In this document: one piece after another, positions 11,187-21,145 of the stretch
How the letters are laid out: each line of letters begins with the position of its first letter
Position numbering within the stretch: the first letter of the stretch is position 1
Virus record (IMG/VR): IMGVR_UViG_3300023184_000038
Location: 79,666 to 143,665 of that record
Direction: 5' to 3' (one strand)
Length of the DNA stretch: 64,000 nt
Source: a virus
Position numbers and translations under genes: made by a program
The notes under the pieces: model-generated
The model's input: only the letters and a program-made list of their open reading frames with translations
The model's database searches: none
Told to the model about the DNA's origin: nothing

Positions 11187-12035
11187 ATGGCAAAATTAAA
11201 AGTAGCAGAACTCTTCTATAGTATACAGGGAGAAGGTAGATATATGGGTGTCCCTTCAGTCTTTCTACGCACATTTGGATGTAACTTCAAATGTGCAGGA
11301 TTTGGTATGCCTAAGGGTGAACTAAGTCGTGAAGTAGAAGATATTGCTGCCAATATACATTTATATAATCAGTATACGCAACTTCCATTAGTTAGTACTG
11401 GATGCGATAGTTATGCTAGTTGGGATCCAAGATTCAAAGACTTGAGTCCAGTACTTACTACTGATAGTATTGTTGACAGTATTATGTCTATGCTTCCACA
11501 CAATCGTTGGATGGAAGAACATCTGGTTATCACAGGAGGTGAACCTTTACTAGGATGGCAGCGTAGTTATATTGATTTACTTTCACATGACAAGATGAAA
11601 GGGTTACAAGAACTAACTTTTGAAACAAATGGTACTCAATCTCTACAACAAGAATTGAAAAGTTATTTGCAGCAGTGGGGAATTAATCGTTCTAGAGGTG
11701 CAATTACATTTAGTGTTAGTCCTAAACTTAGTATTAGTGGTGAGAAGTGGGAAGAAGCAATATGTCCTGACATCATTAATGAGTACTCACAAACGGGTCG
11801 TACATATTTAAAGTTTGTTGTTGCAACTAAACAAGATGTAGAGGAAGCACAAACAGCCGTTAATCAATATCGTACTAATGGATTTAGAGGGCATGTGTAT
11901 TTGATGCCATGTGGTGGCGTTGAAAGTGTGTATAACTTGAATGCAAAAAATGTTGCACTTGAAGCAATGCGTTTAGGCTGGCGTTATAGTGATAGACTTC
12001 AAGTCCCACTGTTCAAAAACGAGTGGGGAACTTGA
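11187..12035 (+). CDS. queE: 7-carboxy-7-deazaguanine synthase (radical SAM)
   Basis: ELFYSIQGEG, FLRTFGCNFKC...GCDS, ITGGEP, ETNGT, VSPK. Confidence 0.93.
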   Translation: MAKLKVAELFYSIQGEGRYMGVPSVFLRTFGCNFKCAGFGMPKGELSREVEDIAANIHLYNQYTQLPLVSTGCDSYASWDPRFKDLSPVLTTDSIVDSIMSMLPHNRWMEEHLVITGGEPLLGWQRSYIDLLSHDKMKGLQELTFETNGTQSLQQELKSYLQQWGINRSRGAITFSVSPKLSISGEKWEEAICPDIINEYSQTGRTYLKFVVATKQDVEEAQTAVNQYRTNGFRGHVYLMPCGGVESVYNLNAKNVALEAMRLGWRYSDRLQVPLFKNEWGT

Positions 12036-12457: not shown

Positions 12458-13819
12458 ATGCGAACATATAATAAACGAATAGCATTTCTAATTAGTGACC
12501 AGCATTTTATTACGCATGGTGGGATAGGGCAGTTTGCTAAAGGTTTTACTGAATTAGGAGACCGCATCAATTGGAAAGTTGACATTATCTTAGACAAAGA
12601 ACCAACAAACGATTTATCTATACTAGTTAAATCATTGGGTGCAAATATCATATATACAGATTCTGGTCTACGCTATTCTGACCATACTGCTACGTTTGCT
12701 TTTAAAGATAGTATTAATTTTGAAAAAATGGTTAATTTCAGAAAAAGCATTATGCTTGCGTTAGAAACTAATATTTATGATATGATTATTTGTAACACGC
12801 AAGAAGCAATGAGTGCAGCATATTCTATGGGGTTAGGAAAATATATTCCAGTAGTATTTTACACACATTCGTATAGTATGGTTTTTAGAGATGAGCAAGA
12901 TTTTAGTGATGTTTGTATAGATGAATATCATAACTTTTTCAATAAGCATATGGAACTATCTCATAGTTTTGTTGGAACTCAAAGTCAAAAGAATGTTGAT
13001 GAGATGACTAAGTATGGTGCAAAGAATGTATCACTATTGCGTATGCCATTAAGTGAACGAGAATTGTTAGTACGCAATGATAATCCGCGCAAAGGTGTAT
13101 TGTTTATTGGACGATGGGAAGAACGAAAAAATCCAGAAGCATATATTCGTGTTATGAAAGAATGTAAATTGCCTTGCAGAGTAATGACCAATAAAACAGG
13201 TGCTAAAAAATTTGAAAAAGCATTTGCTGATAATAACATCACAGATTATGAAATCAAAATAAGTATTATTGGCAAAGAAAAAGTAGATTTTATTAAAAGT
13301 TGTAGTGTATTTTTTATGCCAGCATTAGGAGAAAACTATCCGTTTGCGTTTAGTGAATGTTTGGGACATATGCCATGTGTTGTGTTAGATAATCAAGATT
13401 GGTCTAATAATTTTGACGAAAAATATTTTTATAAAGAAAAATTAAACAATGTATCAATGTTAATTCAACGATTATACAATACTACAAATTACTACGATAC
13501 CGGAGCATTAGAATATATTAAATTACTAGATGACGATACCGCTATAGGCTGGATAAAATTTTTAGATAAGTTTGTTTCTAAAAAAAGTAATACTAATTCA
13601 GCAAAAATAAATTCGACAGAAACAGTATGTTATCAAGACTATATTAAAGAATTAAACAGAGGGCATTTAGCCCGTGAAGATATTGAAAGTGTATTGGCAA
13701 ATCGTCATAAATTTATTATCAATGTATATACAGATGATAATACGTATTTAAGTAAAGATCCAAAATTTAAGCCAATAGAAGAACAGTCACCTAGTGTGTC
13801 ATTATTTGAATGGGTATGA
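12458..13819 (+). CDS. Glycosyltransferase family 4-like
   Basis: N-terminal HGGIGQF, LFIGRWEERKNP, PALGENYPFAFSE (Ex7E). Confidence 0.85.
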   Translation: MRTYNKRIAFLISDQHFITHGGIGQFAKGFTELGDRINWKVDIILDKEPTNDLSILVKSLGANIIYTDSGLRYSDHTATFAFKDSINFEKMVNFRKSIMLALETNIYDMIICNTQEAMSAAYSMGLGKYIPVVFYTHSYSMVFRDEQDFSDVCIDEYHNFFNKHMELSHSFVGTQSQKNVDEMTKYGAKNVSLLRMPLSERELLVRNDNPRKGVLFIGRWEERKNPEAYIRVMKECKLPCRVMTNKTGAKKFEKAFADNNITDYEIKISIIGKEKVDFIKSCSVFFMPALGENYPFAFSECLGHMPCVVLDNQDWSNNFDEKYFYKEKLNNVSMLIQRLYNTTNYYDTGALEYIKLLDDDTAIGWIKFLDKFVSKKSNTNSAKINSTETVCYQDYIKELNRGHLAREDIESVLANRHKFIINVYTDDNTYLSKDPKFKPIEEQSPSVSLFEWV

Positions 13820-14652
13820 TGAAAAAAGTATTAATAACAGGTAATTCAGGTTATATCGGTAGTCATCTTTCCAAGATGTTAGCAGATTCTTATGAAGTAT
13901 ATGGGTTAGATATTACCCTTCCACAGACAGATCGGCTTAAAGATTGGTATAATATTGATATTCGTAAATTATTTACTATTGACCAAGAATTTGATGCAGT
14001 AATACATTTAGCAGCCTTAGTTAATGTAGGTGAAAGTGAGCAGCAACCCATAAGTTATTATATTACCAATTTGAATGGGACGATGAATGTCATCAATAAG
14101 ATTAAGACAAAGAATTTTATTTTTGCAAGTACTGGCGCAGCAGCGGGATGTGAGAGTGCATATGGTATTAGTAAACGTGCTGCGGAAGATGTGGTGCGTG
14201 AATATTGCACTATACATAATCCCAAAGATTACACAATATTTAGGTTCTATAACGTAATTGGTAGTGATGGTTTTTTGCCAACTAATCCAGACGGGTTGAT
14301 GTATAATTTAATGAAATCAAAAGAAAAGGGCGAATTTACTATTTTTGGGAATGACTATGATACCCGAGATGGAACTTGCATACGTGATTATGTACATGTT
14401 AATGAGATATGTGAAGCATTAGGTAGTGCTATTGAGAGGCCAAGTAATCAAATAGAATGTTTAGGGCATGGAGTAGGTTATACTGTTGCCGAGATAGTTA
14501 ATACGTTCAAAAAAGTAAACAATATACCTAATATTAATTTACTTACTAAGATAGGTCCAAGAAGAAAGGGTGACTTAGCAGTATCTGTATTAGATAATGT
14601 GTCACCCTATATGAAGAATCTTTATACTTTAGAGCAGTTACTTAAAGTTTAA
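13816..14652 (+). CDS. galE: NAD-dependent epimerase, UDP-glucose 4-epimerase-like
   Basis: TGNSGYIGS, HLAA, YGISK, DGTCIRDYVHV. Confidence 0.85.
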   Translation: MMKKVLITGNSGYIGSHLSKMLADSYEVYGLDITLPQTDRLKDWYNIDIRKLFTIDQEFDAVIHLAALVNVGESEQQPISYYITNLNGTMNVINKIKTKNFIFASTGAAAGCESAYGISKRAAEDVVREYCTIHNPKDYTIFRFYNVIGSDGFLPTNPDGLMYNLMKSKEKGEFTIFGNDYDTRDGTCIRDYVHVNEICEALGSAIERPSNQIECLGHGVGYTVAEIVNTFKKVNNIPNINLLTKIGPRRKGDLAVSVLDNVSPYMKNLYTLEQLLKV

Positions 14653-16394
14653 GAAGCCCATTTTTTATAGGGCTTTGGTAATTTATTTTCCGCCACACCT
14701 TGCTTTCTAATCTTAACATTACCCCTCATTCGGTCAACACTTTCAGGAGTAGGAATATTTAGGCTACGGAACTGAGCTGTGCCTTGTGCAGCAACTGGTC
14801 CTCCATGTAAACTATCACGCTCTTCACCTTTGCTGTTACGCCACTTACCGTCAGTGCCTTGTGTCAGTGGTTCTTTTGTTTGATAGTCTCGTGGAACAAA
14901 CGGTGCATTTGCACTAGGCTCTGGACTTGGGCTAGGTGATGAAGTAGATGCTGCTTTCCAGCCAGCCGCGTTCATTGCGTCTACAGTTTGATCACCGGGC
15001 TGTTTGCCGTCAGCTTTTCCATTTACAATTCGCAAATACGAAGCCATTCCATACTGTGTACCAGAGCCTGCTGGCTTTTCAATCCAGTATGTTTTGCTTT
15101 GTGTATCAAGAACAGCTGGATAATTCTGACCATTATAGTTAGTAGTTGTTAAAGTAAATCCATTACCTAAATCTTTTTCATTTGCCGGCGGTCCTCCAGC
15201 AGTGGCACCAGTATTACTAAAATCATTTATATTAGCTCCTGGTGGCAATCGTGGACGAATTGGTGCTTCAGCAGAGGCACCAGTATTACTAAAATCATTT
15301 ATATTAGCTCCTGGTGGCAATCGTGGACGAATTGGTGCTTCATCTTCTTCTGTCACACCTTGCTTCTTATATACATCCTTGAATGCTTTATTAAAAATGT
15401 CAGTAGCTTGCTTAGTTGTTTTTTTAGCAGTGGTTGGCGTGGCAGTATGTTGTGGGTCAGAGTCGCTATAGTGGTCTCTTGAACCATATGTGCTATGACT
15501 TCTTGTGCCATCAGATTTCATACGTCCTTTGGGTTCTTGACTATGCATTTCCGCCACATCAGATTCTGGTTTCTTCTGCCCGTACATGTCTTTTCCATCT
15601 TTATCATAATGAGTTGGGGGAAAATCATACGCTTTATTATGAATATCTTGCCTGGCCCATCTATTCATCTCACGCGGCCGGGGAATTAATTTTACCGTAG
15701 GCGTATGCTTATCTTTCAATGCCCAGTTATTCATTCCTTCCGCCACACCTTGCTCTAAACGATTCTGCGCTTTAGCAAATCCTGCAACACTGCGGTTGGC
15801 TTTTTCTGGACTACGCTTTGTTGGGTCTGCTTTATGTTTCATAGAGTCGGAACTTACTTTTTGTTGATAACTCTTTAGTGCATTATTGCTAACTTCCGCC
15901 ACACCTTGCTCGGCCATTCCTAACTTACGCATTACCGCCGGAGAAGCGATTTTGTTTTTTATACAATTGGGATATTTTTTCCCAAACATAGTTTTCATGC
16001 CTTCTTTGTGATATCCTTTCCAGCAAGCTTCGTCTAAACTTTTCTGTGAGTGATCTCCGTGTGTTTCACACATACCACAGTCTTCACAGACCATTTCCAT
16101 CTCAATGCTTTCGTTGTGTTTCTTTTTACCAGCGCAATGAGCCTTTTGACTAAATCCTTTGGGATGTGAGCAATTGATACTGCTTTTATATTTTTGACTC
16201 CATCCCTCATTATAGTTATCATACTTATTACGAACAGCATCTAACTTTTTTTCACTAGCACCTTCACGTCCTGCTTTGGCTAATGCCTTCATACCATTTT
16301 TGCCATACTTTTCATTGCCCTTGGCAGCACGACTCATTGGTCGTTTATTCTCTATTACTTTTTCTGTGCTAACAATTATGTGATTTATTTTCAT
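14649..16394 (-). CDS. Mosaic protein with repeated QGVAE motifs; probable internal head polyprotein
   Basis: MKINHIIVSTE N-terminus, five QGVAE/QGVTE/SDVAE junctions, low-complexity and Cys-rich micro-modules. Confidence 0.6.
   Translation of the reverse strand: MKINHIIVSTEKVIENKRPMSRAAKGNEKYGKNGMKALAKAGREGASEKKLDAVRNKYDNYNEGWSQKYKSSINCSHPKGFSQKAHCAGKKKHNESIEMEMVCEDCGMCETHGDHSQKSLDEACWKGYHKEGMKTMFGKKYPNCIKNKIASPAVMRKLGMAEQGVAEVSNNALKSYQQKVSSDSMKHKADPTKRSPEKANRSVAGFAKAQNRLEQGVAEGMNNWALKDKHTPTVKLIPRPREMNRWARQDIHNKAYDFPPTHYDKDGKDMYGQKKPESDVAEMHSQEPKGRMKSDGTRSHSTYGSRDHYSDSDPQHTATPTTAKKTTKQATDIFNKAFKDVYKKQGVTEEDEAPIRPRLPPGANINDFSNTGASAEAPIRPRLPPGANINDFSNTGATAGGPPANEKDLGNGFTLTTTNYNGQNYPAVLDTQSKTYWIEKPAGSGTQYGMASYLRIVNGKADGKQPGDQTVDAMNAAGWKAASTSSPSPSPEPSANAPFVPRDYQTKEPLTQGTDGKWRNSKGEERDSLHGGPVAAQGTAQFRSLNIPTPESVDRMRGNVKIRKQGVAENKLPKPYKKWAS
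14688..15908 (-). repeat. Dispersed 15-bp repeat CAAGGTGTGGCGGAA
   Basis: Exact at 14688-14702, 15738-15752, 15894-15908; variants at 15348-15362, 15549-15563; another variant at 19901-19915. Confidence 0.9.
15204..15342 (-). repeat. 72-bp tandem duplication (EAPIRPRLPPGANINDFSNTGA x2)
   Basis: Near-perfect direct repeat, 72-nt period. Confidence 0.95.
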
Positions 16395-16873
16395 TTACTA
16401 CCCTTTTCTTTATATGCCCAACGAGGTCCACCACCGCCGCCACCTGTTTCATTAAACCATGCATTGGATTCAGCTTGAGGTAAAGATTTTAGCCATTTAG
16501 AAAGCACTCCGGCCGCTGGGATCTTTCCATTTTTGTCAACAAATCTAGTGGAAATGACTCCTTTACGATTATCACCTATTTGCGGACTCAGCCAAACGCC
16601 ATTCCACGCAGGTTCCCACATCATTATTTTTGTTGGATTGAATTCCCATTTTGTTGGGGAGAGCGGTCTAAGCAGATACACAGTTCCAGTTCCTCCGGGC
16701 GATGGGTTTGGAATTTCTTTATAATTACCTTTGGGAATTTGAATTGAAGCTTGACCAATCTTGCTTGCAGGGACCATATGGGTCCAGTTACTGGGTACAA
16801 CATCATTACCACTACCTTTAGCAGTAGTTGCGGCAGGTGCTCCCTGAGATGCCAGCCACTCTAGTGGACTCAT
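16391..16873 (-). CDS. Hypothetical protein
   Basis: ATGA overlaps at both ends. Confidence 0.65.
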   Translation of the reverse strand: MSPLEWLASQGAPAATTAKGSGNDVVPSNWTHMVPASKIGQASIQIPKGNYKEIPNPSPGGTGTVYLLRPLSPTKWEFNPTKIMMWEPAWNGVWLSPQIGDNRKGVISTRFVDKNGKIPAAGVLSKWLKSLPQAESNAWFNETGGGGGGPRWAYKEKGSK

Positions 16874-18468
16874 TGTTCATCCTTCATCAGGAACCCTAGT
16901 TTTTTCATGGCTGTCAGATAGGCTCTCCACAATTTATCAGGCCAACCGGTTGGTCGTTCGTAAGTCTTTCCGTCTACGGTTGCACGTTTTGGTAAAGGGC
17001 CAATATCTTGCACTGGATCTCCTGATTTACCCCAGGGCTTGTCGGTTGCTGCAACTGCCAGTGCTGGCAATTGACCAGACATAGCCTTCTCTCTAAGGTC
17101 TTCTATACCATCTATTGTTGCTTTTATATCTACTTTTAAATCGGCATCAGTAGTATCTAGTCCAAAATAACGCACAAGTATAGGCAACTGTTTTTTAATT
17201 ATATCAACATCTTCTTTTGATATAAATCCAGCTGCTACAGCCTGTCCAACTGTACCTGCCTGCCCGGCTCCGCCTTCAGGTCCTCCGCCAGGCACACCGC
17301 CTTCAGGTCCTCCGCCAGGCACACCGCCTTCAGGTCCTCCGCCAGGCACACCGCCTTCAGGTCCTCCGGGAGGTTTATCTTCTGGTTTTTCTTCTTTGTT
17401 ATTCCACCAGTCCCATAATGCTTTACCACCTTCATATGCTCCCCATAAGCCTAATCCCACGCTTCCAGCTTTTCCTAACTTACCAAGACCACTACCAATA
17501 CTACGCATTGGATTACGGGCAGCAGCTGCTGCGGTCCGTCTAGCAGTTGATTGAGCTGTAATTGCTGCCCTTCTAGCTGCCTGGGCTGCTCTATTCCTAG
17601 CGCCGGGACTGCCACCTCGGACTAGTCTACCAAGTCCCCGAACTAACGGAGCAATAAATTCATTTAATTGTTCTGGCTTATTTTCAATTAAAATAGTAAA
17701 AATTCTAATTTGTTCAGCAGGTGAAAATTCATGTAGATTTTCAGATATCAGCCTACGTTTGAGAGTATTTCTACTTTCTGTTGTTACCTTATATTTTTTA
17801 AGAATATTGTTTAATTGAGTCAATGCAGTAGTTAAATCAGCGGCAGGGCCGATATCTTTATCTGCATTTCCTGATTTACCCCTAAGATTGCCCGCTGCTG
17901 CAGCACCTGCTGCACCACCTGCAGTATTTGCACCCGCCTCGGCATCCATTCTATCAGCAATTCGTTCAGCTTGTGCTGCTGCGTCCGGTGCTTGATTTGC
18001 TGTAGTTGATGAATCAGTAGAAGAGTTTCCTGCTTGATTTGGTGTATCTGAGGAATCAGTAGAAGAGTTTCCTGCTTGATTTGGTGTATCTGGGTAAGGT
18101 TCAAACTTGTAAGGGGCAGAGTCAGTGCCGGGCCCAGGATCTTTACCGGCTTGGTTAGTTCCCGAAACACCGCGGCTAGTACCAAACGTTCCAAAATTAG
18201 AAGAAGCATTGTTAGGAGATGTGCTAAATATTGGTTCATCTGGCTTTCCACCAACTACACTCTTAACTGTATTCAAGTTGCTTGTACCAACGTTTAGTTC
18301 TTTTGCTTTTGCTTGATCGTCGGGGTCTTTAAAATAACTTAGTGGAGGCTTTTCACCGGGCATTCTGGCTAAAATATACGGATCTTTACGGTCTGCATTA
18401 CCCAACCATTTTTCTTGTTCGGGAGTAGGAGTCCATTCTTCCCGCAAAATTAATTCATTTATTTTCAT
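16870..18468 (-). CDS. Low-complexity late protein, probable internal head/ejected protein
   Basis: MKINELILREE N-terminus; GATAAATA late box at 18488-95; multiple I/LxE sites; Gly/Ala-rich amphipathic region. Confidence 0.6.
   Translation of the reverse strand: MKINELILREEWTPTPEQEKWLGNADRKDPYILARMPGEKPPLSYFKDPDDQAKAKELNVGTSNLNTVKSVVGGKPDEPIFSTSPNNASSNFGTFGTSRGVSGTNQAGKDPGPGTDSAPYKFEPYPDTPNQAGNSSTDSSDTPNQAGNSSTDSSTTANQAPDAAAQAERIADRMDAEAGANTAGGAAGAAAAGNLRGKSGNADKDIGPAADLTTALTQLNNILKKYKVTTESRNTLKRRLISENLHEFSPAEQIRIFTILIENKPEQLNEFIAPLVRGLGRLVRGGSPGARNRAAQAARRAAITAQSTARRTAAAAARNPMRSIGSGLGKLGKAGSVGLGLWGAYEGGKALWDWWNNKEEKPEDKPPGGPEGGVPGGGPEGGVPGGGPEGGVPGGGPEGGAGQAGTVGQAVAAGFISKEDVDIIKKQLPILVRYFGLDTTDADLKVDIKATIDGIEDLREKAMSGQLPALAVAATDKPWGKSGDPVQDIGPLPKRATVDGKTYERPTGWPDKLWRAYLTAMKKLGFLMKDEQ
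17270..17368 (-). repeat. 27-bp tandem repeat (GGPEGGVPG, ~3.7 copies)
   Basis: ccgccttcaggtcctccgccaggcaca repeated. Confidence 0.95.
18011..18092 (-). repeat. 42-bp tandem duplication (DTPNQAGNSSTDSS x2)
   Basis: gaatcagtagaagagtttcctgcttgatttggtgtatctg occurs twice. Confidence 0.9.
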
Positions 18469-18493
18469 TTTAGTTTACCTTGTTTAGTATTTA

Positions 18494-20035
18494 TCAATGC
18501 CTTAACAATAGAGTACTTAATACACCTGGATCGTTTGCACTAACATCCCCTTCACCGGGAGCAACAATAACATTGTACTTCATGCCAGTTGGAATTGAAT
18601 TTCTTTTGGACATGTATTCAGTATAACTTAATATACTTGATGCACTAATGCCGTATTCGTTTGCAATACGTTGTTTCATTTGAGCAAGAGCCTCAGGACT
18701 AGCAGGTTGCCATGCACCATCTGATGTCTTTTTCAAGTTACCCTTTTCATCCTTAGCCAACAAGTCATAAAATAGTTTTTCAGGCACTATACGACTATTC
18801 TTAGTTTTATCTAAGTTTGGATCTTGTGCCTTAATTTGTTTCTCTTGTGTAGTATTAGCACCTTCACTCCAATTGATAATAAAGTTAGGCGGCTTATTAG
18901 CCAATGCTGCTCCGGCCATCTTAGTGTAAGCATAGAATCTAACATCAGGATGTTTAGCAGCCATTTTCAATGCTAAATCTAAGTATTCTGGACTAAAGAA
19001 GTCACCAGCATCATGCCAGCGAACTGTTGTTTGCCAACCATTAGGGAATTTCTTATCACCCTTTGCTGCTGCTTGTGCCTCAACAGAGATTTCATTGCTT
19101 AGTTGATTAAAGAAACCATCTGGATCATTCAATAGATATGTTAGTATTCTTCCGTCACTTTGCCATGCTGCCTTAAATTGAATCTTACCGCCCTTCATGG
19201 CAAAGCACTCTACTTTACAAGAGCCAGCACCGGGACAAGTATTAACAACGATTAACTTATTGGTTTGTTCATCTAGTGCAATTCCTACTAATGCTGCGAA
19301 TCCAACATTAAAAAATTGTTCAAACTCTCCATTACTATGCTTCATCTTTTCATTTTGCTTTAGTAACGCTTTGGGACGAATTGCCAATGTTTGTTTAATT
19401 TTATCCTCATCATATGTTTGACCATCTGGACTTAAGTATGTAACTACACTACTACGATGGATGTAAGGCATTTTGTATTTGTCTGTTTTAGTTTTACCAG
19501 TAGTATACTTTTCGTTGCCTTTCTTATCTACTTTGATATTACCTGCTTTATCTAAGTCGGGTGTGCCAACGATACGTTTCATGTAGTCTTGAAACTCTTG
19601 GCTATCTAAATCACGAGTTTGTGCTGGCAGTTTGGTTGCTTCGTCTACATCTTTATACACACTACCTGCTTTATGTGCTGCATCAGTATAAGTACCGTGT
19701 AGTTTTTGTAACTGAGATAATGCTTTAGGTCCGTGAGTTTTTAAAATTTCAGCATATGCTTTGTCAGATGCTGCTTTGTTCGGGACTCTACCACCGCCGC
19801 CGTGATTTAAATAGGCTTTATGATATGCTGTCTTAGCATCAGATTCATTGATCTGTCCTAATCCAGATAGTTTACGAATTCTATCTAAGTGTTCTTGGCC
19901 TTCCGCCACACCTTCTTCTTCATCTGGCATATCACTTGCACTAGCAACAAATTGTTGGGGAGTCATAATTTTTATTCCCGATGGTGCGCCTGCTAAATTA
20001 GAATTAGTTGACTCTAATATATCATTTATTTTCAT
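18494..20035 (-). CDS. GP88-like (radical-SAM-related) domain protein with MKINDILE leader
   Basis: TCPGAGSCKVECFAMKG, VRWHDAGDFF, FYAYTK; start moved to ATG 20035 (GGAG RBS); late box at 20087-94. Confidence 0.65.
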   Translation of the reverse strand: MKINDILESTNSNLAGAPSGIKIMTPQQFVASASDMPDEEEGVAEGQEHLDRIRKLSGLGQINESDAKTAYHKAYLNHGGGGRVPNKAASDKAYAEILKTHGPKALSQLQKLHGTYTDAAHKAGSVYKDVDEATKLPAQTRDLDSQEFQDYMKRIVGTPDLDKAGNIKVDKKGNEKYTTGKTKTDKYKMPYIHRSSVVTYLSPDGQTYDEDKIKQTLAIRPKALLKQNEKMKHSNGEFEQFFNVGFAALVGIALDEQTNKLIVVNTCPGAGSCKVECFAMKGGKIQFKAAWQSDGRILTYLLNDPDGFFNQLSNEISVEAQAAAKGDKKFPNGWQTTVRWHDAGDFFSPEYLDLALKMAAKHPDVRFYAYTKMAGAALANKPPNFIINWSEGANTTQEKQIKAQDPNLDKTKNSRIVPEKLFYDLLAKDEKGNLKKTSDGAWQPASPEALAQMKQRIANEYGISASSILSYTEYMSKRNSIPTGMKYNVIVAPGEGDVSANDPGVLSTLLLRH

Positions 20036-20110
20036 ATGTCTCCGTAAATCATTTACTTTATTAGGCAAATATGCTATAATATACTATATTTATCACTACT
20101 GGCAATTCTT

Positions 20111-21145
20111 ATGACAAATAATCATATCAAACGTATTGGGTTTGCGTGTAAGTTTTCTGAAGTTAATACTAAAAACTTTGTAGTTAGTGTGCCTGAATTA
20201 AACACGGGCGGCACAACTTTAACTTGGTTAAAACGTCAAAAACAAGAAGTAGCAGAACAAAAATTGTGGGATACTATGGAAAAAAATATAACCCATACTC
20301 ATAATCTTGTAATGAAAGTTGGATCCCTTGTACCGGACCTCAGAATGGTTAGATTAACTAGCGATATGCTAACTGCATATACCCATCCTGATTGGGAATA
20401 TTTTTATAAACGCCATGATGTGATTACCCGTATGGAAGAATTATTCACTAAAGTGGGCAATTCTGCTAGAGAAAATGATGTTAGATTGTCTTTTCATCCG
20501 GGACAATTTACTGTTTTAGCAAGCGCAAGTGATGATATCATAAATAACAGTATTAAAGAGTTTGAATATCATGCGGATATGGCTCGTAGTATGGGGTATG
20601 GTAAACAGTTTCAAGACTTTAAAATCAATGTTCATATTTCAGGTAGACGAGGTCCGCAAGGAATCAAAGATGTAATGAAACGTCTAACCGTAGAAGCTAG
20701 AAATATGATTACTATTGAAAATGATGAAATGACATGGGGAATTGATTCAAGTATGGAATTGATAGATACTTGTGCATTGGTACTAGATATACATCATCAT
20801 TGGATTAAAACTGGAGAATATATTGAAAATAATGATGATCGTATTAAAAGGATTTGTGATAGTTGGCGTGGCGTGCGCCCTGTTATACATTACTCCGTTA
20901 GTCGTGATGACTTACTTGTTGGCCATTCCCGATTACAGCGCCCCGCTCTTTTTCCGTTAATGGAGTCCGGGCATAATAAACAAAAACTTAGAGCACATTC
21001 TGATTTTTATTGGAATGATGCAGTCAATGATTGGGCATTGACTCACTGGCAATGGGCGGATATTGTCTGTGAGAGCAAAGCAAAAAATCTTGCCTCATTT
21101 GCATTATATGAACTACGTAAGGATAAAGAATGTTCAACAAATTAA
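20111..21145 (+). CDS. uvsE: UV damage endonuclease
   Basis: IGFACK, RLSFHPGQFTVLAS, IENDE, LDIHHH, HYS, LRAHSD, ESKAKNLA. Confidence 0.93.
   Translation: MTNNHIKRIGFACKFSEVNTKNFVVSVPELNTGGTTLTWLKRQKQEVAEQKLWDTMEKNITHTHNLVMKVGSLVPDLRMVRLTSDMLTAYTHPDWEYFYKRHDVITRMEELFTKVGNSARENDVRLSFHPGQFTVLASASDDIINNSIKEFEYHADMARSMGYGKQFQDFKINVHISGRRGPQGIKDVMKRLTVEARNMITIENDEMTWGIDSSMELIDTCALVLDIHHHWIKTGEYIENNDDRIKRICDSWRGVRPVIHYSVSRDDLLVGHSRLQRPALFPLMESGHNKQKLRAHSDFYWNDAVNDWALTHWQWADIVCESKAKNLASFALYELRKDKECSTN

Follow-up and report, generated by a model that had tools for sequence, protein, structure and literature searches.

The window analysed here is a 64,000-nt stretch of viral DNA, the final 64 kb of the 143,665-bp IMG/VR fragment IMGVR_UViG_3300023184_000038, and two genes on its minus strand carry copies of a short in-frame DNA word, CAAGGTGTGGCGGAA, that encodes the peptide QGVAE. 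We found that this word, which we also call the anchor, is kept as a DNA string at hundreds of sites with unrelated flanks, spelled with codons that are rare in these genomes, and that related phages have gained, lost, swapped or reordered whole protein modules, or duplicated them into other genes, with junctions that lie at the word. We propose that the word serves cargo proteins targeted to the capsid as an in-frame joint between cassettes and would in addition act as a protease site, a reading to which we assign a probability of roughly 0.65. The source fragment, with a G+C content of 36% and a completeness of 41% (CheckV), is part of a jumbo phage genome, and belongs to a clade of uncultured T4-like jumbo phages (lake).

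A preliminary description of the window had listed three exact 15-nt copies and three variants at six positions; all of these are real, in frame and distributed over two genes. That description needs correction in one respect, as all six sites lie on the minus strand, five of them in an open reading frame (ORF) of 581 aa and one in an ORF with a GP88 domain. The 581-aa gene (14649..16394, minus strand) codes for a protein with the leader MKINHIIVSTE and a 12-aa tail, between which lie five modules of 52-220 aa that are unrelated to one another. Its first anchor, CAAGGTGTGGCGGAA at 15894..15908, encodes QGVAE at residues 163-167 and has GMAE just before it, and the second, another exact copy of the 15-mer at 15738..15752 (residues 215-219), closes the 52-aa module 2. 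These are followed by a variant, TCTGATGTGGCGGAA at 15549..15563, which reads SDVAE and retains the 9-mer GTGGCGGAA as its last nine bases, by a decaying anchor with two mismatches, CAAGGTGTGACAGAA at 15348..15362, which reads QGVTE (GTG ACA GAA), and by the third exact copy at 14688..14702, again QGVAE, 12 residues ahead of the stop codon. The sixth site, GAAGGTGTGGCGGAA at 19901..19915, has one mismatch (GAA...), reads EGVAE and stands at the end of the 45-aa leader-propeptide of the GP88-domain gene. A pattern search of the window for CAAGGTGTGGCGGAA with up to 3 mismatches returned 6 matches where 0.81 were expected, and no shuffle out of 100 gave as many; among these matches the one at 11832 (plus strand) is unrelated, and the SDVAE site is absent.

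The other features first noted in the window also hold. GTG GCG GAA is retained at five of the six sites, GTG and GCG are indeed unexpected here (14% of Val codons and 7.5% of Ala codons in this genome), and the segments of 52-220 aa between the sites have no significant similarity to one another, the anchor itself excepted. A count over the whole genome, which the preliminary description had called for, gave seven exact copies of GGTGTGGCGGAA and three with one mismatch, in four genes, all of them in frame on the sense strand. Four of these copies lie outside the window, in the genes C1:54848-58201 and C1:74519-75679. The latter begins with the leader MRAKEFIVE, after which come three modules, each about 120 aa long and ending in QGVAE; the final QGVAE stands three residues from the stop codon. 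This three-module gene ends in ..QGVAEGLK and a stop, and one base further on, shortly ahead of the window (C1:75680 onward), the next gene begins with MRATEFITE. The former, a 1124-aa anchor gene, and its orthologues contain the peptide KKGVNPFAKK(K) three times, and in one related contig (L020) it directly follows an anchor once; because its codons vary, it looks like an ordinary internal repeat.

The word is conserved at the DNA level. Codon usage predicts the spelling GGTGTGGCGGAA for GVAE with a frequency of 0.35% in this genome and 0.7% in all fetched loci. All ten motif sites of this genome use GTG GCG GAA, and the 12 other VAE tripeptides listed from its long open frames use GTA or GTT followed by GCA, GCT or GCC. 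At sites beyond the selection imposed by the search, namely those whose first codon is not CAA, the exact 12-mer was present in 43 of 70 (P ~1e-74). We also fetched 80 orthologues of the GP88-domain gene through their conserved enzyme domain, and hence blind to the word; of their 58 GVAE sites 42 are exact GGTGTGGCGGAA, 15 are one silent base off and one is two off. Set against the 0.35-0.7% predicted, this test of synonymous sites against codon usage bears out the conservation at the DNA level that had been suspected from the window alone.

Over 340 distinct sites the codon shares were CAA 0.99 (background 0.71-0.84), GGT 0.98 (background 0.42), GTG 0.89, GCG 0.89 and GAA 0.91. The leader peptide MRAxEFIxE of the same phages, which is equally conserved and was taken as a control (79 sites), keeps ordinary codon variation, with Ala as GCA in 0.66 and as GCG in 0.01, Ile split three ways and Glu as GAA in 0.72-0.80, so that selection on the peptide alone does not freeze the DNA here. 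When 242 sites whose flanks are unrelated are compared, the conserved stretch reads (A/G)A(G) CAA GGT GTG GCG GAA GG(C), or (K/E)-Q-G-V-A-E-(G), and the background level is reached 6 nt ahead of the word and 3 nt past it, with surroundings that are Lys-rich upstream and Ser/Asp/Glu-rich downstream. In view of the unrelated flanks at these 242 sites we rejected recent duplication as the source of the copies. The peptide is constrained too, since the one-mismatch variants, by our own tally, comprise about 30 silent and 23 replacing changes, as compared with 10:26 for random mutation.

The exact 15-mer is present on at least 120 IMG/VR contigs, and among the matches listed 164 of 172 exact copies read QGVAE within an ORF of at least 80 aa, which argues that they are not chance matches. 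A single ORF can hold up to eight anchors. When 148 modules were compared with Pfam, matches were found to DUF6321 (8), DUF7230 (3), DUF5872 (3) and GP88 (1), along with a few weak ones, and most modules were unmatched; a Pfam scan likewise gave nothing for the other anchor genes of this genome. Judged by capsid protein, the closest cultured phages (62-67% identity) are Vibrio phage 2.275.O, Sinorhizobium phage Phosso, Pseudomonas phage PA5oct and Escherichia phage Turkey5; the word is absent from them, and for this reason no published virion proteome applies. We were not able to find a description of the word in the literature, most subscription journals being outside the search, and met QGVAE only in papers on alpha-synuclein. 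In one anchor-bearing record (G001, IMGVR_UViG_3300027749_002876, 524,565 bp) the anchor pair at 176506/176887 recurs at 524059/524440, exactly 347,553 bp away, and this record probably extends over more than a single genome unit, each of about 347.5 kb.

Gain, loss and reordering of modules at the anchor had been proposed from the window, and the comparison of related phages agrees with this, as orthologue indels, swaps and one reordering (not all indels) break there. When all loci were compared pairwise by blastn, 552 unique internal endpoints fell inside anchor genes, and 156 of these lie within 8 nt of an anchor where 21 are expected, a statistic inflated by the tendency of blastn ends to snap to any short conserved island; within 30 nt of anchors the enrichment of ends is still roughly 3.5-fold, as we estimate from the distance histogram. 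In fourteen pairwise matches each of the two ends lies at an anchor, with 77-97% identity inside and flanks at random level. Two neighbouring modules of the three-module gene match two different contigs, at 94% and 91% identity, and in their other matched stretches these contigs are just 64-72% identical to the present genome. Similarly, the contigs L010 and L067 share 99% identity as far as GVAE, show no relationship over the one to two cassettes directly after it, and become similar again beyond these. The same slot architectures recur in contigs of different samples, which argues against an assembly artefact, and we rejected chimeras also in view of the word's length, which should be too short for the repeat to collapse at the usual assembler k-mer sizes. 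Diversity-generating retroelements, shufflons and integrons were rejected too: these are direct repeats within coding sequence, and neither a reverse transcriptase nor a recombinase was noticed in association with them, though no search aimed at such enzymes was made.

The exchange is most readily followed in the GP88-domain gene (PF17338; ORF 18494-20068, minus strand, probable start at 20035, the ATG of MKINDILE), which is made up of the leader-propeptide, the anchor, the conserved GQEHLDRIRKLSGL and the enzyme domain. In its orthologues there is a fixed slot, in which the leader-propeptide (..GDMPGEESEE) and GVAE are followed by 0-5 cassettes, each ending in GVAE, and then by G(Q/E)EHLxRIRKLSGL and the GP88 domain. 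The slot of the window is empty, with the single anchor at 19901..19915. A contig whose domain is 97% identical to that of the window (L140) has a 43-aa cassette in the slot, four others (L142, L148, L150 and L160) have one different, unrelated cassette apiece, and L116 has the arrangement of the window plus a 68-aa zinc-ribbon-like cassette exactly between two anchors. Altogether, 31 cassettes from 23 unrelated families occupy this slot in 19 orthologues. Their order can be permuted, as in L176 (E-F-G) and L197 (G-E-F), where every junction is at an anchor; the three cassettes are 97-99.6% identical between the two contigs and the surrounding gene just 79-85%, so the cassettes move horizontally. 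Cassettes also move between genes, since the cassette that L160 and L184 have in the slot (VSDATLTSYLTKLD...) has a homologue in the 52-aa module 2 of the 581-aa gene of the window.

In orthologues that lack the word, the propeptide is joined to the domain by E-V-D-E, likewise a V-x-E sequence. One cassette, VRDLGYDAQSL..., is preceded by ..EEVDEG or by ..GVAEG when the slots of L174 and L186 are compared with those of L176 and L197, so the anchor-free E-V-D-E-G can border a cassette as well. Decayed anchors are also visible, in the forms ESVEE, PEADEHL and QGVTE.

We propose that the modules are exchanged by crossover at the 12-20 identical bases of the word, through homologous or microhomology-primed recombination or through template switching in a mixed infection. 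As the word is in frame, every such exchange would leave an open reading frame, and cassettes with intact words would keep spreading, which would keep the word uniform. The encoded V-A-E, followed by Gly or Ala, would then be a site for a T4-type prohead protease: the polyprotein would enter the prohead by means of its N-terminal leader and be cut into separate small internal proteins, and these would travel with the DNA.

The consensus of T4 prohead protease sites is [L/I]-x-E, and V-A-E fits [L/I/V]-x-E, with Gly as the next residue at 145 and Ala at 32 of the 242 sites. The modules, of about 45-220 aa, are within the size range of T4 internal proteins. A strict T4-like leader pattern was found on 34 of 91 anchor ORFs (37%) as compared with 42 of 464 other ORFs (9%), a six-fold enrichment (P = 1.6e-10), and three of the four minus-strand genes of the window open with leaders resembling T4 capsid-targeting sequences (MKINHIIVSTE, MKINELILRE and MKINDILES). 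In the sequence of these leaders, of about 10 aa and ending in [L/I/V]-x-E, the anchor proteins resemble the capsid-targeted internal proteins of T4-type phages. Peptidase_S77 scored above the Pfam cut-off in three anchor-bearing genomes (G001, G002 and G005) and in the close relatives G006-G008, whose orthologues of the GP88-domain gene are 92-93% identical to that of the window. In the large anchor-bearing contigs and these relatives, genes for Peptidase_S77, a scaffold protein and the Gp23 capsid protein stand in a row; the close relatives hold 5-8 exact words each, and none was seen in their head-gene loci. In T4 the protease gp21 strips internal proteins of their leaders and cleaves the proteins of the head after Glu (PMC9026906, PMC9958956), and the phiKZ and SPN3US proteases cleave at S/A-x-E (PMC9026906, PMC5694885).

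Several points weigh against our proposal. With regard to the joint, and besides the inflation of the endpoint statistic mentioned above, some indels have no anchor boundaries: in a three-orthologue alignment of the 1124-aa gene the anchors stand at non-homologous positions and some indels are not anchor-bounded, which is why we consider the joint frequent and not exclusive. A test of synonymous diversity at the orthologous slot anchor was weak, with 12 distinct sequences and too little power, and selection, the spread of cassettes and an enzyme all stand as candidate keepers of the word. With regard to cutting, the 143-kb fragment to which the window belongs, 41% complete, has neither the protease nor the capsid genes. 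The word lies 0-12 residues from the stop codon in about 9 of 118 complete anchor ORFs, where cutting would be pointless and the position better fits the 3' end of a cassette. The capsid protein of the relatives presumably matures at LLAE, YLKE or YLSE, as we take it from alignment to the N-terminus of T4 gp23; with plain L-x-E in use there instead of GVAE, the protease would not require the word. Finally, we infer the cutting, virion packaging and injection of the anchor proteins from their sequences. The interpretation first offered for the window, in which one element serves both as recombination anchor and as protease site for peptides that are cut free and injected, is therefore partly supported: comparative data support the recombination joint, and the half concerning protease and injection is plausible.

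It is possible, though in our judgement unlikely, that the word is a recombination joint only and otherwise a flexible linker, and that the multi-module proteins stay intact as 'polyvalent' proteins, packaged or not. Anchors next to a stop codon would make no sense as cut sites, the capsid protein relies on L-x-E, and polyvalent multi-domain phage proteins are already known (PMC5512222), all of which favour this explanation; the fit of the peptide to [L/I/V]-x-E with a small residue next, the excess of silent over replacing variants, the E-V-D-E at the slot border of anchor-less orthologues and the enrichment of T4-like leaders on anchor ORFs speak for a role of the peptide in addition to that of the DNA. 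AlphaFold2 models made without alignments do not allow the location of anchors in linkers to be read, because their mean predicted local distance difference test scores (pLDDT) are low (33 for the 386-aa three-module protein and 44 for the 581-aa protein).

We consider it more doubtful that a dedicated enzyme of the phage targets the word, which would make this a programmed in-frame exchange of modules, integron-like, for pieces of injected proteins. Put specifically, a site-specific endonuclease or recombinase of the phage would recognise the word of about 20 bp and start cassette copying by break repair, in an active system resembling an integron, and this we regard as improbable. The conserved stretch of about 20 bp is within the sizes of homing-endonuclease sites as we know them, and sites with a single anchor gain units of a cassette plus an anchor, as break repair from a two-anchor donor would give. 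There are also candidate ORFs, GIY-YIG-like (L132:2669-3649) and HNH-like (L133:2609-3379) by motifs read by eye, which stand directly downstream of the major capsid gene in these two anchor-bearing relatives. Against this, no enzyme is linked to the word, no test of co-occurrence having been made, and ordinary T4-type recombination at short identities could suffice.

Upkeep at the level of the mRNA, by a rare-codon translational pause at domain borders or a Shine-Dalgarno-like AAGGTG, with recombination as a side effect, is very improbable: GTG and GCG are rare codons here and the word is always on the sense strand, but that orientation is explained by the word being in frame, a pause would not need the common codons GGT and CAA that are fixed as well, no conserved flanks are able to pair, and a known RNA element is rejected because Rfam gave no match in positions 14000-20500 of the window.

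The nearest known system to the joint proposed here is the set of T4 internal proteins. The T4 leader is MKTYQEFIAE, and the leaders of the present phages (MKTYQFITE, MRAKEFIVE, MKINELILRE) are very like it; the two also agree in the Peptidase_S77 of the relatives, in a small, unrelated and fast-changing cargo, and in the likely cutting after Glu. In T4 the capsid targeting sequence of IPI, IPII, IPIII and Alt is removed by gp21, and the internal-protein loci are hypervariable (PMC9026906, PMC3012670, PMC12373910 and PMC2839356). T4 has one gene per protein, whereas here several modules share one frame and one leader, and only the word, not the leader itself, is fixed in its DNA. Shuffling in T4 is ascribed to intergenic promoter/stem-loop elements (PMC2839356), and here to a DNA-fixed coding word. 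These promoter/stem-loop (PeSL) cassettes mediate modular shuffling in T4-type genomes (PMC2839356, PMC4122927) and resemble the word in being short conserved DNA at module borders that serves as a recombination point in T4-like phages. PeSLs, however, are intergenic and regulatory, an early promoter with a stem-loop terminator, and move whole genes, while the word is coding and in frame, has no conserved pairing flanks and moves parts of proteins.

A second likeness is to polymorphic toxins, in which CdiA-CT regions are swapped at the VENN motif and Rhs proteins exchange their C-terminal tips (PMC7662968). There, too, constant and variable parts meet at a short conserved peptide motif, and homologous recombination in the DNA that encodes it has been proposed as the means of module replacement, just as the breakpoints here are at the word. 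Those systems have one C-terminal toxin, an immunity gene and long upstream homology, whereas we see internal arrays with up to eight anchors per ORF and 12-20 nt of identity, in a phage; in the GP88-domain gene the slot lies between a propeptide and a conserved C-terminal enzyme, and no paired small genes were seen. Polyvalent proteins (PMC5512222) and the head and ejection proteins of phiKZ and SPN3US (PMC5694885, PMC9026906) are similar in that many modules are delivered with the DNA and cuts are made at x-x-E, but the available parts of these papers describe neither a DNA-fixed joint nor joint-bounded exchange. Polyvalent proteins are strings of conflict-related domains, and from the 148 modules only the four Pfam families named above and a few weak matches emerged. 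The present finding combines packaged cargo of the T4 type with the exchange of cassettes at a conserved junction.

The word would be a natural frame-safe device for domain shuffling in a virus, one that both keeps the frame and sets the point of exchange, and the same short sequence probably also marks a cut site for the head protease. It gives concrete access to a large reservoir of uncharacterised small phage proteins, as illustrated by the 23 families in one slot, almost none of them matched in Pfam. The context suggests that the cassettes are packaged and delivered with the DNA, which is the class of the T4 anti-restriction proteins, and the word could therefore be used as a search key for candidate injected effectors in metagenomes. 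It also makes two matters testable, namely the shortest DNA identity that organises T4-type recombination, and whether the word persists by selection or by its own spread. Were the enzyme explanation true, the population would re-deal small proteins for host takeover or anti-defence at a high rate.

The 581-aa and GP88-domain genes belong to a block of four minus-strand genes. Between them lie a 160-aa gene (16391..16873) with neither leader nor anchor, which serves as context, and a low-complexity gene of 532 aa (16870..18468), which has the T4-like leader MKINELILRE and no anchor and whose membership in the system is uncertain. Searches of the window genes against Pfam and PHROGs yielded nothing but GP88 and a weak match to one PHROG whose function is unknown, and no Pfam family matched the 581-aa gene. 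The block is flanked by genes for a GalE-like epimerase (13810-14652) and a UvdE endonuclease (20111-21145). Within positions 14001-20000 its G+C content is 0.39-0.44, as compared with 0.32-0.35 in the surrounding plus-strand genes, and its GC and AT skews are flipped relative to these genes. Near-perfect tandem repeats are found inside the leader-bearing genes at 17270-17368, 17989-18092 and 15190-15342 of the window. Those of the 532-aa gene consist of a 27-nt unit repeated 3.7 times with a 100% match (a GGPEGGVPG stretch) and of a 42-nt unit repeated 2.5 times, and in the 581-aa gene a 72-nt unit is repeated 2.1 times (EAPIRPRLPPGANINDFSNTGA twice), directly after the QGVTE site.

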